Positions 13,725-53,067 of a stretch of DNA of 64,000 nucleotides are shown in pieces (position 1 is the stretch's first letter; every line of letters starts with the position of its first letter). Source of the stretch: Escherichia coli (GTDB taxonomy: Bacteria > Pseudomonadota > Gammaproteobacteria > Enterobacterales > Enterobacteriaceae); NCBI RefSeq assembly GCF_003018255.1, contig NZ_CP027440.1; one strand, written 5' to 3'. The translations under genes were made by a program, and so were the position numbers. The notes below the pieces were generated by a model. It was given only the letters and a program-made list of their open reading frames with translations. It searched no databases and was not told where the DNA came from.

Positions 13725-13915
13725 CTGGTGTTAATACCCGATCTTCTGCGCATCCTCGCGACTAATGACAACCCTAACCCAGCTCTATGTGGGTAAAGCC
13801 TCTCATTAGCCGCGCGAACCTCTGCAGCGGAAGATCATTCATAGCAACAATACATTAGTTTCCAGTGAATTGCTGCCGTCAGCTTGAAAAAAGGGGCCAC
13901 TCAGGCCCCCTTTTC
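13725..13915 (+). ncRNA. sraG: Possible SraG (PsrO) sRNA antisense to the pnp leader
   Basis: Recalled location of SraG in the rpsO-pnp intergenic region on the opposite strand; plus-strand hairpin ggggccactcaggcccc + TTTT at 13893..13914 would give its 3' end; 5' end not determined. Confidence 0.3.
13886..13914. terminator. Bidirectional hairpin terminator (rpsO terminator)
   Basis: aaaaaaggggccactcaggcccccttttct: GC stem flanked by A-run and T-run. Confidence 0.75.
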
Positions 13916-13930
13916 TGAAACTCGCAAGAA

Positions 13931-14296
<366 letters not shown>

Positions 14297-15740: not shown

Positions 15741-15771
15741 TTAATTTCAGGTGGAAGGGCTGTTCACGTTG

Positions 15772-15845
15772 GCCTGATAAGACGCGCCAGCGTCGCATCA
15801 GGCAATCCATGCCGGATGCGGCGTAAACGCCTTATCCCGCATGGA
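15772..15845. repeat. REP/BIME element
   Basis: gcctgataagacgcgccagcgtcgcatcaggc and gccggatgcggcgtaaacgccttatcccgc match the REP consensus. Confidence 0.65.
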
Positions 15846-15857
15846 ACCCTAAAAACC

Positions 15858-18530
15858 TTAAGCGATGGTACGTTGGATTTCGATGATTTCGAATACTTCG
15901 ATCACATCGCCAGTGCGGACGTCGTTGTAGTTCTTAACGCCGATACCACATTCCATACCGTTACGGACTTCGTTAACGTCATCTTTGAAGCGGCGCAGGG
16001 ACTCCAGCTCGCCTTCGTAGATAACCACGTTGTCGCGCAGAACGCGGATCGGGTTGTGACGTTTAACCACACCTTCGGTAACCATACAACCTGCGATGGC
16101 ACCAAATTTCGGTGATTTGAATACGTCACGAACTTCCGCCAGACCGATAATCTGTTGTTTCAGTTCCGGAGACAGCATACCGCTCATTGCCGCTTTCACT
16201 TCGTCGATCAGGTTATAGATGACGGAGTAGTAACGCAGATCCAGGCTTTCCGCTTCAATCACTTTACGTGCAGAGGCATCAGCACGTACGTTGAAGCCAA
16301 CCAGGATGGCATTGGACGCCGCAGCCAGGGTAGCGTCGGTTTCGGTGATACCACCTACGCCAGAACCGATGATCTTCACTTTAACTTCGTCAGTAGACAG
16401 TTTCAGCAAGGAGTCGGAGATAGCTTCCACAGAACCCTGTACGTCTGCCTTCAGGACGATATTCACTTCGTGAACTTCGCCTTCGGTCATGTTGGCGAAC
16501 ATGTTCTCGAGTTTAGATTTCTGCTGACGCGCCAGTTTAACTTCGCGGAATTTACCCTGACGATAGAGTGCAACTTCACGCGCTTTCTTCTCGTCACGTA
16601 CAACGGTAACTTCATCACCCGCAGCCGGAACGCCGGACAGGCCGAGGATTTCCACCGGAATGGACGGACCCGCTTCCAGCACTTCCTGACCCAGTTCGTT
16701 GCGCATCGCACGAACACGACCGTATTCGAAGCCACACAGAACGATATCGCCCTTGTGCAGAGTACCTTCACGTACCAGAACGGTAGCAACCGGACCACGA
16801 CCTTTATCGAGGAAGGATTCGATAACCGCACCGCTCGCCATACCTTTACGTACCGCTTTCAGTTCCAGAACTTCCGCCTGCAGCAGGATAGCGTCCAGCA
16901 GCTCATCGATACCAGTACCCGCTTTCGCAGACACATGTACGAACTGGCTTTCACCGCCCCACTCTTCCGGCAGGATGCCGTACTGGGAGAGTTCGTTCTT
17001 AACGCGATCCGGATCGGCTTCTGGTTTATCGATCTTGTTCACTGCAACCACCACCGGAACCTGCGCCGCTTTCGCGTGCTGGATTGCTTCGATGGTCTGC
17101 GGCATTACGCCGTCGTCGGCAGCAACAACCAGGACTACGATGTCCGTTGCCTGCGCACCACGAGCACGCATTGAAGTAAACGCGGCGTGCCCCGGGGTGT
17201 CCAGGAAGGTGATCATGCCGTTTTCAGTTTCAACGTGGTATGCACCAATGTGCTGGGTAATGCCGCCCGCTTCGCCAGAGGCCACTTTCGTTGAACGAAT
17301 GTAGTCCAGCAGAGAGGTTTTACCGTGGTCAACGTGACCCATGATGGTCACAACCGGCGCGCGCGGTTCAGCCGCTGCACCCGTGTCACGGTCGCTCATT
17401 ACCGCTTCTTCCAACTCGTTTTCACGACGCAGGATAACTTTGTGGCCCATCTCTTCAGCAACCAGCTGTGCGGTTTCCTGATCGATAACCTGGTTGATGG
17501 TTGCCATTGCGCCCAGTTTCATCATCGCTTTGATGACCTGAGAGCCTTTAACCGCCATCTTGTTCGCCAGTTCGCCAACGGTGATGGTTTCGCCGATCAC
17601 AACGTCACGGTTAACGGCCTGAGCAGGCTTCTGGAAGCCTTGCTGCAGCGAAGAACCTTTACGTTTTCCGCCCTTACCGCCACGTACTGCTGCGCGTGCT
17701 TCTTCACGATCAGCTTTTGATTCAGCGTGTTTGTTGCCTTTCTTCGGACGCGCAGCTTTCGCGTTACGACCACGGCCACGGCCGCCTTCGACTTCACGAT
17801 CGCTTTCGTCTTCTGCCTGGCGAGCATGTTGAGAAGTAGTAACGTGATAATCGCTGGAATCTTCAGTCGGTTCCGCGTTATCAGTCCATTTGTTTTCTTC
17901 CGCCATACGACGTGCTTCTTCAGCAACGCGACGTGCTTCTTCTTCGAGTTTACGACGCGCTTCTTCTTCGGCTTTACGCTTGAGCTCTGCAGCTTCCTGC
18001 TCACGGCGGGCTTTTTCAGCCTGGGCGTTTTTAGTCATATCGTCTTGTTGATTGCTCACTTTGTCTTTTTCCGCAGCTTCACGTTTCGCTTGTTCAGCAG
18101 CTTCACGCTTAGCTTGTTCTGCGGCCTCACGTTCAGCTTTTTGTTGCGCCTCACGTTTGGCCGATTCTTCTGCCTCACGACGGGCTTGCTCTTCCGCTTC
18201 ACGCTGCGCTTGCTCTTCCGCAGCAAGGCGTTCAGCCTCTTGCGGATCGCGTTTCACAAAGGTGCGTTTCTTGCGGACTTCGATTTGTACCGATTTGCTT
18301 TTTCCACCGGTACCAGGAATGTTAAGGGTGCTGCGTGTTTTACGTTGCAGCGTCAATTTGTCCGGGCCTGAATTTTTCTGATTCAGGTGGTCAATCAAAG
18401 TCTGTTTCTCTTGTGCAGACACAGAGTCGTCAGCAGACTTCCGGATACCTGCATCAGCAAATTGCTGTACCAGGCGTTCCACGGAGGTCTGTCGCTCTGC
18501 GGCCAGCGTTTTAATCGTTACATCTGTCAT
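15858..18530 (-). CDS. infB: Translation initiation factor IF-2
   Basis: Track ORF, 890 aa; GTPase G1 motif GHVDHGKT; repetitive [10 protein letters not shown]-terminal region. Confidence 0.97.
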
Positions 18531-18554: not shown

Positions 18555-20042
<1,488 letters not shown>

Positions 20043-20522: not shown

Positions 20523-20545
20523 GCCCACCCCCAAGACATAAAAAA

Positions 20546-20608
20546 AGGGCCTAAAGCCCAGTTATTCTGTAGTCAGATAACAAAAAACCCCGATAAATCG
20601 GGGCTTTA
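20546..20608 (-). terminator. Two tandem hairpin/U-run structures between metY and rimP
   Basis: Minus strand gggctttaggccc + U-run and agccccgatttatcggggtttttt. Confidence 0.5.
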
Positions 20609-20728
20609 TATAACTGAACCCTATAACCGCAACTGCGGTCTGGAGCACTTTCCAGAAGGATTTTTTCAAATCCCACTACGAAGGCCGAAGTCTTCACAGT
20701 ATATTTGAAAAAGGACTCTAAGGGAAAG

Positions 20729-20805
<77 letters not shown>

Positions 20806-31321: not shown

Positions 31322-31358
31322 GCAAAAAAATACCGACCCGGGTACAAGTCCCAGGTCA
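31322..31358 (-). promoter_or_regulatory. graL: Leader terminator in greA 5' region (GraL-type attenuator)
   Basis: Minus strand: imperfect stem ACCUGGG/CCCGGGU followed by a U7 run, about 100 nt upstream of the greA ATG; coordinates approximate. Confidence 0.4.
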
Positions 31359-31476
31359 GCTACAATTCACATTTTGATAGTCATTTTACCCTGAAGTTCC
31401 CGAAGGGTCATCGTTTACTTTATAGGGCGTTGCGCCGTAGTATGACGGCTCGATTCCAGGTTGTTAGCGCGAGATT

Positions 31477-52946: not shown

Positions 52947-53067
52947 GTGCGGCCTGAAAAACAGTGCTGTGCCCTTGTAACTCATCATAATAATTTACGG
53001 CGCAGCCAAGATTTCCCTGGTGTTGGCGCAGTATTCGCGCACCCCGGTCTAGCCGGGGTCATTTTTT
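52947..53067 (+). ncRNA. arcZ: ArcZ (SraH/RyhA) sRNA
   Basis: Sequence matches recalled ArcZ: gtgcggcctgaaaaacagtgctgtgccc...acggcgcagccaagatttccctggtgttggcgcagtattcgcgcaccccggtctagccggggtcatttttt; terminator hairpin plus T6 overlaps the arcB stop on the opposite strand; 5' end approximate. Confidence 0.75.

Follow-up and report, generated by a model that had tools for sequence, protein, structure and literature searches.

In a 64,000-nucleotide (nt) window from Escherichia coli (assembly GCF_003018255.1, contig NZ_CP027440.1), the gene infB encodes a tandem array of octapeptides in the N-terminal region of IF2. We consider it highly likely that this array represents the repetitive, hydrophilic Domain I helix of the alpha isoform (IF2-alpha) and, jointly with this, that its periodicity in DNA is a by-product of the protein. 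The feature itself is already known: the literature has described the repetitive Domain I helix since 2003, and the helix assigned by nuclear magnetic resonance (NMR) to residues 98-157 of E. coli IF2 (Laursen et al. 2003/2004, as given in PMC4611024) is the same feature, with no structural difference. Our additions are the 8-residue unit, the protein-level periodicity of ancient units, and a quantification of slippage (seven units in at least 99.5% of 5,425 genomes). In the accessible literature, which excludes the two primary NMR papers, we found neither the octad register, nor the unit-by-unit orthology, nor the polymorphism of three to nine units.

The octapeptide unit and its gene

Self-similarity of the protein is maximal at a lag of 8 residues (33 of 52 identical), with further maxima at lags of 16 and 24; a lag of 9 stays at background (10/51). 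On the coding strand, the autocorrelation at a lag of 24 nt is 0.69; codon shuffles give 0.37 ± 0.04, and none of 2000 attains the observed value (z = 8.1). Lags of 48 and 72 nt are also significant, and the 27-nt lag that corresponds to a nonapeptide is at background. TRF and a second repeat search both return a period of 24 nt. The array is a tandem repeat of head-to-tail units with a constant 24-nt period, beyond chance expectation, and its unit is the octapeptide A-x-E-x-A-K-R-E (8 residues, 24 nt). Six full units (U1-U6) stand between a degenerate leading unit and a degenerate last unit (U7), the whole spanning 18054-18245 (Table 1).

The initial annotation had placed tandem repeats of the nonapeptide EAAEQAKRE at 18040-18260, which corresponds to IF2 residues 91-164. 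The tandem repeat is real, and self-comparison gives the repeat signal in both protein and DNA autocorrelation. The period was misjudged: EAAEQAKRE appeared to be a nine-residue unit because its last E starts the next one. The description of the region as highly repetitive DNA was also overstated. Pairs of units share 15-20 of 24 nt (63%-83% identity), the closest pair being U5 and U6 (20/24 nt), and even these two, which encode the identical peptide AAEQAKRE, differ in four of their eight codons. Where different units encode the same residue, they use the same codon in 41 of 83 cases (49.4%), compared with 50.1% expected from infB codon usage, and the longest exact direct repeat (14 nt) is what this protein gives with random synonymous codons (13.3 ± 2.8 nt).

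Comparison across 63 species points the same way. The DNA identity of an E. coli unit to the unit in the same place elsewhere is 89.7% (minimum 80%), compared with 61.5% (maximum 64%) to the other units; since orthologous identity lies so far above paralogous identity, the units are old, individually conserved, and not homogenised. With no excess of codon identity, no concerted evolution, and units that are individually orthologous, the repetition is a property of the protein, with the DNA periodicity as its by-product.

The identity of U5 and U6 as peptides depends on Gln147, which is specific to E. coli: it is found in none of the 63 other species, Lys being the residue in those examined. 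We considered whether this identity arose by recent duplication or gene conversion and rejected the idea, given the four differing codons; a single nucleotide change separates Gln147 from the Salmonella state, so that a point mutation is enough.

The assignment to infB made in the initial annotation is borne out by several lines of evidence. The product scores 987.9 bits against the IF-2 equivalog model TIGR00487 (cutoff 424.4), which by this curated cutoff makes it a bacterial IF2. E. coli IF2 chains of PDB 3jcj, 3jcn, 5me0, 5me1, and 9h9h match residues 1-309 over their full length (E = 9e-178), residues 1-250 are identical to PDB 3jcj_f in the printed alignment, and the NMR structure PDB 1nd9 corresponds to residues 2-50. 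The Pfam architecture comprises IF2_N (1-50), IF2_assoc (56-94), a further IF2_N (314-364), GTP_EFTU, EF-G_D2, IF-2, and GTP_EFTU_D2, and no Pfam model covers residues 95-313. The gene order metY-rimP-nusA-infB-rbfA-truB-rpsO, read from open reading frames (ORFs), the tRNA-Met, and Rfam leaders, is the operon context of IF2, and the RefSeq annotation of matching loci agrees with it. Of 5,426 complete E. coli genomes, 5,330 match the 501 nt around the array with an identity of 99% or more, and the annotation there is always infB. The gene is infB of E. coli. One of the 5,426 genomes has no match at all to this segment, and one match in the collection lies on a plasmid record.

Conservation of the units and changes in their number

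A scan with one genome per species gave 80 Enterobacteriaceae loci. For array length, measured as the distance from the motif FVKRDP to the internal-start Val, we used the 75 sequences with both anchor motifs (74 loci and the window). The length is 61 amino acids (aa) in 61 of these, 69 aa in 12, and 60 aa in two. The 69-aa arrays occur in Kosakonia, Phytobacter, Franconibacter, Siccibacter, and Mangrovibacter and in two records labelled otherwise. In the full alignment, insertions within the array fall at one point only (after residue 131), in exactly 12 species and of exactly eight residues each. On average, the array is 87% identical to its E. coli counterpart, against 85% for the folded IF2N domain and 84% for residues 214-290, and the octad peptide pattern is kept at the nonsynonymous level in all species compared. 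By these alignments, the array does not behave as a variable region within Enterobacteriaceae. Purifying selection appears to hold seven units in >99% of E. coli and in most Enterobacteriaceae.

Two of the records in this comparison stand out by their labels. In one, titled "Chryseobacterium sp. 18061", the infB is of the Enterobacteriaceae type (83% identity), and "Citrobacter freundii M-21" has the eight-unit array otherwise seen in Kosakonia and Phytobacter; mislabelling or contamination of the source records is the probable cause in both.

Within E. coli, we determined unit number in the 5,425 complete genomes with a match, using two designs. One was a single alignment with a 261-nt query spanning the array, at an E-value limit reachable only by ∼235 or more matched bases. 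By this measure, at least 5,398 genomes (≥99.5%) have an uninterrupted seven-unit array, the weakest match being 98.1% identical; the count is the same at a laxer limit, so the remaining 27 genomes are discretely different. The other design used synthetic queries with units deleted or duplicated, at limits beyond the reach of a canonical genome and with the genome N68 as positive control. A screen for insertions and deletions on the share of the query covered (≥80%) was discarded: because overlapping BLAST pieces were merged into one place, it is blind to single-unit changes, and proven variants scored 100% coverage.

A variant unit number is found in 23 of the 5,425 genomes (0.42%), always through whole units and by at least 11 distinct DNA events. 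There are three units in one genome (N68; infB product of 858 aa), five in one (874 aa), six in six (882 aa), eight in 12 (898 aa), and nine in three (906 aa). Unit by unit and base by base, we inspected 21 of the 23 arrays, including 10 of those with eight units. N68 lacks U2-U5, the junction lying within the shared decamer AGCGTGAAGC, and STEC2018-553 lacks U3-U4. All six-unit arrays have lost one of U5 and U6, in three ways that leave U6, U5, or a U5/U6 chimera. In the eight-unit arrays inspected, the duplicated unit is U1 (two genomes), U4 (one), U5 (one), U6 (four), or a U5/U6 chimera (two). Among those with nine units, OkiPb01695 has the U5-U6 pair duplicated, and M15 and SY033 combine a U1 duplication with a U6 duplication. 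Every variant is annotated as intact infB (858-906 aa), with U7 and codon GTG158 unchanged. The other four noncanonical genomes comprise a record in which the origin splits the gene (H40/H148) and three others.

The changes are thus concentrated at U5/U6, the most similar pair, which Gln147 also makes identical as peptides. They also recur, since the same protein accession is encoded by different DNA structures: WP_000133053.1 (898 aa) by three of them (U5-U5-U6, U5-chimera-U6, and U5-U6-U6), and both this protein and WP_040062784.1 (882 aa) appear by different DNA structures in unrelated isolates from several countries. The short matches available, exact over 8-14 nt and reaching 20 of 24 nt in the pair U5/U6, suffice for occasional replication slippage or unequal recombination, by which whole units are gained or lost in frame; as the events lie upstream of GTG158, they alter only IF2-alpha.

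The initial annotation had called this the known variable, dispensable N-terminal domain of IF2 and a likely site of slippage or recombination, pointing to comparison of IF2 length across strains. Together with the gene assignment, these readings are supported, with qualifications. The expected slippage or recombination holds at low frequency, with 858- to 906-aa variants alongside the 890-aa norm. The region is indeed a known one, and the literature describes real variability of the IF2 N terminus across phyla. It is not variable within Enterobacteriaceae, where nearly all of the 80 species have 61 or 69 aa. As to dispensability, growth in the cold and under pH stress has been reported to need the IF2 N-terminal region (two preprints: PMC11838494, PMC12919033).

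A charged helix, its possible role, and the alternatives

AlphaFold2 (AF2), run on residues 1-250 with a 24-sequence alignment, gave a mean predicted local distance difference test score (pLDDT) of 74.9 and a predicted TM score (pTM) of 0.29. The model comprises the IF2N subdomain N1, a beta-hairpin (58-92), and a continuous helix over residues 96-161 (block pLDDT 77-91), followed by a low-confidence break around residues 160-167 (pLDDT <50 at 160-165) and another helix (168-217). The predicted array helix has ∼66 residues and would measure ∼100 Å at 1.5 Å per residue. The 61 residues of the array include 18 Glu, 18 Ala, eight Gln, eight Arg, and six Lys (54% charged, 30% Ala, 13% Gln), with a single large hydrophobic residue (Leu) and no Gly or Pro. 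Among i,i+4 pairs, 17 are of opposite and none of the same charge, and the combined i+3/i+4 score has z = 3.3 relative to shuffles. We infer that every fourth residue forms a stripe along the helix: an Ala stripe (octad positions 1 and 5), two acid/base ladders (positions 3/7, E and R; positions 2/6, E/A and K/Q/R), and one Q/E stripe.

Single alpha-helix (SAH) domains of the ER/K type occur, for example, in myosin VI/X and caldesmon. The array shares with them a long unbroken predicted helix, dense i,i+4 opposite-charge pairs with few of the same charge, the lack of a hydrophobic seam or of helix breakers, and a spacer position between two functional modules; it differs in its composition and in a strict 8-residue period rather than E4K4-like blocks. 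Given the 17-to-0 charge pairs and the near absence of large hydrophobic residues, the array most likely behaves as an ER/K-type single alpha-helix, a likeness that would be one of mechanism and not of homology. A literature search for "single alpha-helix" in connection with IF-2 found nothing relevant. Published work describes this region as helical and mobile, with N1 tumbling independently (review PMC4611024), and Domain I, present in IF2-alpha only, as binding NusA through N1, which is joined to the rest by a long flexible linker (2025 study, PMC12297416). The array would then be a semirigid spacer of ∼100 Å, 12 Å per octad, between the NusA-binding N1 head and the ribosome-bound body, an arm exclusive to the alpha isoform. 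We lean somewhat toward this spacer function.

The array could instead be a constraint on the mRNA leader, structured or unstructured, that sets how much translation starts internally at GTG158 and ATG165, the peptide repeat being incidental. Both codons are present in frame, their use as starts being taken from the literature (GTG158 isoforms: PMC12297416, PMC11838494), and the predicted helix ends where IF2-beta (GTG158) and IF2-gamma (ATG165) begin. GTG158 is conserved in 75 of 75 anchored sequences, with a Shine-Dalgarno-like GGAA ∼10 nt upstream, and Met165 in most species, in the context DDMTK or DEMTK. U7 is identical in 24 of 24 nt in Salmonella, Klebsiella, and Buttiauxella, and in the 63 species synonymous codon identity reaches 97.8% at residues 152-159. 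These data suggest mRNA-level selection on the IF2-beta initiation region, and they indicate that the degenerate last unit doubles as that region. However, the extra synonymous constraint is limited to this unit (73%-92% in the others), the RNA fold of the 231 nt is unremarkable (z = -1.76, matched by nine of 200 shuffles), a search of the array for inverted repeats was negative, and it is the peptide pattern that is conserved in all species compared. We therefore rejected an mRNA-structure role for the whole array, the last unit excepted; such constraint is a real overlay on the final unit and improbable as the explanation of the array. Still less probable is a DNA-level variable number of tandem repeats (VNTR) or contingency locus, in which frequent slippage or gene conversion keeps units alike and copy number serves as a rapid adaptive switch. 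Such a locus would share with the array its head-to-tail 24-nt period and its differences in copy number (3, 5, 6, 8, or 9 units in 23 of 5,425 genomes), and bacterial in-frame protein VNTRs likewise gain and lose whole units where neighbouring units are most alike, here in recurrent events at U5/U6. Yet the array units are ancient and diverged, merely 63%-83% identical, with codon identity between them at the random expectation (49.4% vs. 50.1%) and orthologous identity of 90% compared with paralogous identity of 62%, so that homogenisation or concerted evolution is not seen; their number is constant in 99.5% of E. coli genomes and most of the 80 species; and every change preserves the reading frame and hence leaves nothing to be switched on or off. 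A further difference from the bacterial protein VNTRs is that IF2 is a cytoplasmic housekeeping factor and no surface antigen. The contingency-locus alternative is largely refuted, and a literature search for infB as an E. coli VNTR marker found nothing relevant.

A coiled-coil oligomerisation domain would likewise be a long, continuous helix, and the Ala at every fourth octad position might offer an interface. We regard this as very unlikely: the 61 residues include a single large hydrophobic one and show no heptad a/d pattern, the i,i+4 Ala stripe has a period of 4.0 rather than 3.5-3.67 and the repeat a period of 8 rather than 7, the mobility and independent tumbling seen by NMR (PMC4611024) argue against it, and we did not find IF2 oligomerisation described in the accessible literature. 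Low-complexity E/A/K/R composition with no true unit, forming an intrinsically disordered, phase-separating segment, fits with the lack of a Pfam model at residues 95-313 and with the treatment of the region as part of an N-terminal intrinsically disordered region that drives cold-induced condensates (PMC11838494). It is contradicted by the sharp lag-8 and lag-24 periodicity (z = 8.1), never reached by composition-preserving shuffles, by a predicted helix with pLDDT of ∼82-91, and by the helix that NMR assigns here (PMC4611024), and it seems an improbable account of the array itself; the flanking segments 51-57 and 214-290 may still be disordered and take part in condensates.

Several points weigh against the single-alpha-helix spacer. 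The function is an inference throughout, the pTM is only 0.29, and the two predicted helices might pack against each other. The charged content (54%) is below, and the Ala content above, that of classic E4K4-type SAHs, and published NMR calls this part of Domain I mobile (PMC4611024). On the genomic side, 24 of the 27 noncanonical genomes are accounted for, and the variant alleles are known from assemblies only, in which repeats may be misassembled from long reads, even if the same alleles turn up in unrelated projects.

Neighbouring features and wider meaning

The helix after the low-confidence break has its own 24- and 21-nt repeats and is likewise rich in opposite-charge i,i+4 pairs (20, with none of the same charge), and it too varies rarely within E. 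coli. One repeatedly sequenced clone (the Esc series and CNR20191027, 29 records) has lost RKLEEEAR from it; AH21H025, AR_0149, and H32 show a 21-nt loss, and CMZE046 a 21-nt gain. Such changes explain 34 of the 35 genomes that fail the uninterrupted-alignment test there, and the origin-split record CP027552 probably accounts for the 35th.

Upstream of the array, all 80 other Enterobacteriaceae species have one extra residue after residue 53, so that E. coli appears from the alignment to carry a lineage-specific deletion of one codon in the connector between N1 and the hairpin. Two plus-strand ORFs run antisense through the array (214 and 109 aa); the simplest reading of both is as stop-free mirror frames of a gene rich in GAA, GCN, CGT, and AAA codons. 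Elsewhere in the window, six RNA elements match Rfam at gathering score, all of them expected for such an E. coli region.

Table 1. Features of infB, the octad array, and their surroundings (positions in the window)
Feature	Position	Strand	Basis or remark
infB coding sequence, IF2-alpha, 890 aa	15858..18530	minus	ORF; TIGR00487; Pfam; PDB 3jcj_f match
IF2N subdomain N1 (residues 1-50) and IF2_assoc beta-hairpin (56-94), upstream of helix	18249..18530	minus	PF04760, PF08364; PDB 1nd9; AF2 strands 58-71, 79-92
Codon missing in E. coli after residue 53	∼18370-18372		Extra residue in 80 other species
Degenerate leading unit PQEAERLA, residues 96-103, predicted helix start	18222..18245	minus	AF2 helix from residue 96
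Six full units U1-U6, residues 104-151	18078..18221	minus	Register; lag-24 z = 8.1; period 24
U1 AEEQAQRE	18198-18221	minus	
U2 AEEQARRE	18174-18197	minus	
U3 AEESAKRE	18150-18173	minus	
U4 AQQKAERE	18126-18149	minus	
U5 AAEQAKRE	18102-18125	minus	
U6 AAEQAKRE	18078-18101	minus	
Gln147, codon CAA	18090-18092		E. coli-specific
Degenerate last unit U7 AAEKDKVS, residues 152-159, with IF2-beta initiation region (GCGGAAAAAGACAAA-GTG)	18054..18077	minus	
GTG codon 158, internal start of IF2-beta	18057..18059	minus	Codon present; conserved 75/75
ATG codon 165, internal start of third isoform (IF2-gamma)	18036..18038	minus	Codon present; start role from literature
Second charged helix, residues 168-217	17880..18029	minus	TRF rows 17895-17978; AF2 helix 168-217
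Antisense ORF, 214 aa	17727..18371	plus	
Antisense ORF, 109 aa	18052..18381	plus	
nusA	18555..20042		infB neighbour
tRNA-fMet metY	20729..20805		infB neighbour
SraG small RNA	13743-13914		Rfam
S15 leader	14144-14258		Rfam
naRNA4, in infB-rbfA spacer	15771-15841		Rfam
rimP leader	20540-20640		Rfam
greA leader	31325-31446		Rfam
ArcZ small RNA	52947-53054		Rfam

Outside Enterobacteriaceae, a close comparison is offered by N-terminal helical extensions of other bacterial IF2s, such as that of P. aeruginosa IF2 (PDB 7uiu_x) and the "Type 5" architecture of PMC12919033. A phmmer search aligns the P. aeruginosa protein over residues 1-201 (E = 4e-21). Behind N1 it has a helical segment rich in E/A/R/K, alike in position and composition, but the A-x-E-x-A-K-R-E register is absent. 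The strict octad array is found in 80 Enterobacteriaceae species, whereas the one Pseudomonas sequence examined does not have it, these being the only groups sampled.

As a discovery, the array matters little, and the feature is an ordinary one. The IF2 N-terminal region is under active study with regard to NusA binding, cold-induced condensates, and the evolution of the extension. We think it doubtful that the number of octads is a calibrated ruler, seven units (∼100 Å) setting the reach of the NusA-binding N1 from ribosome-bound IF2-alpha. If it were, the length of the arm would adjust the early coupling of transcription to translation or adaptation to cold, and the alleles with three, five, six, eight, and nine units would be functionally distinct rather than neutral, as would the eight-unit state fixed in Kosakonia, Phytobacter, Franconibacter, Siccibacter, and Mangrovibacter. 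The natural alleles of three to nine units may in any case provide a length series with which the reach of the NusA-binding N1 could be tested.

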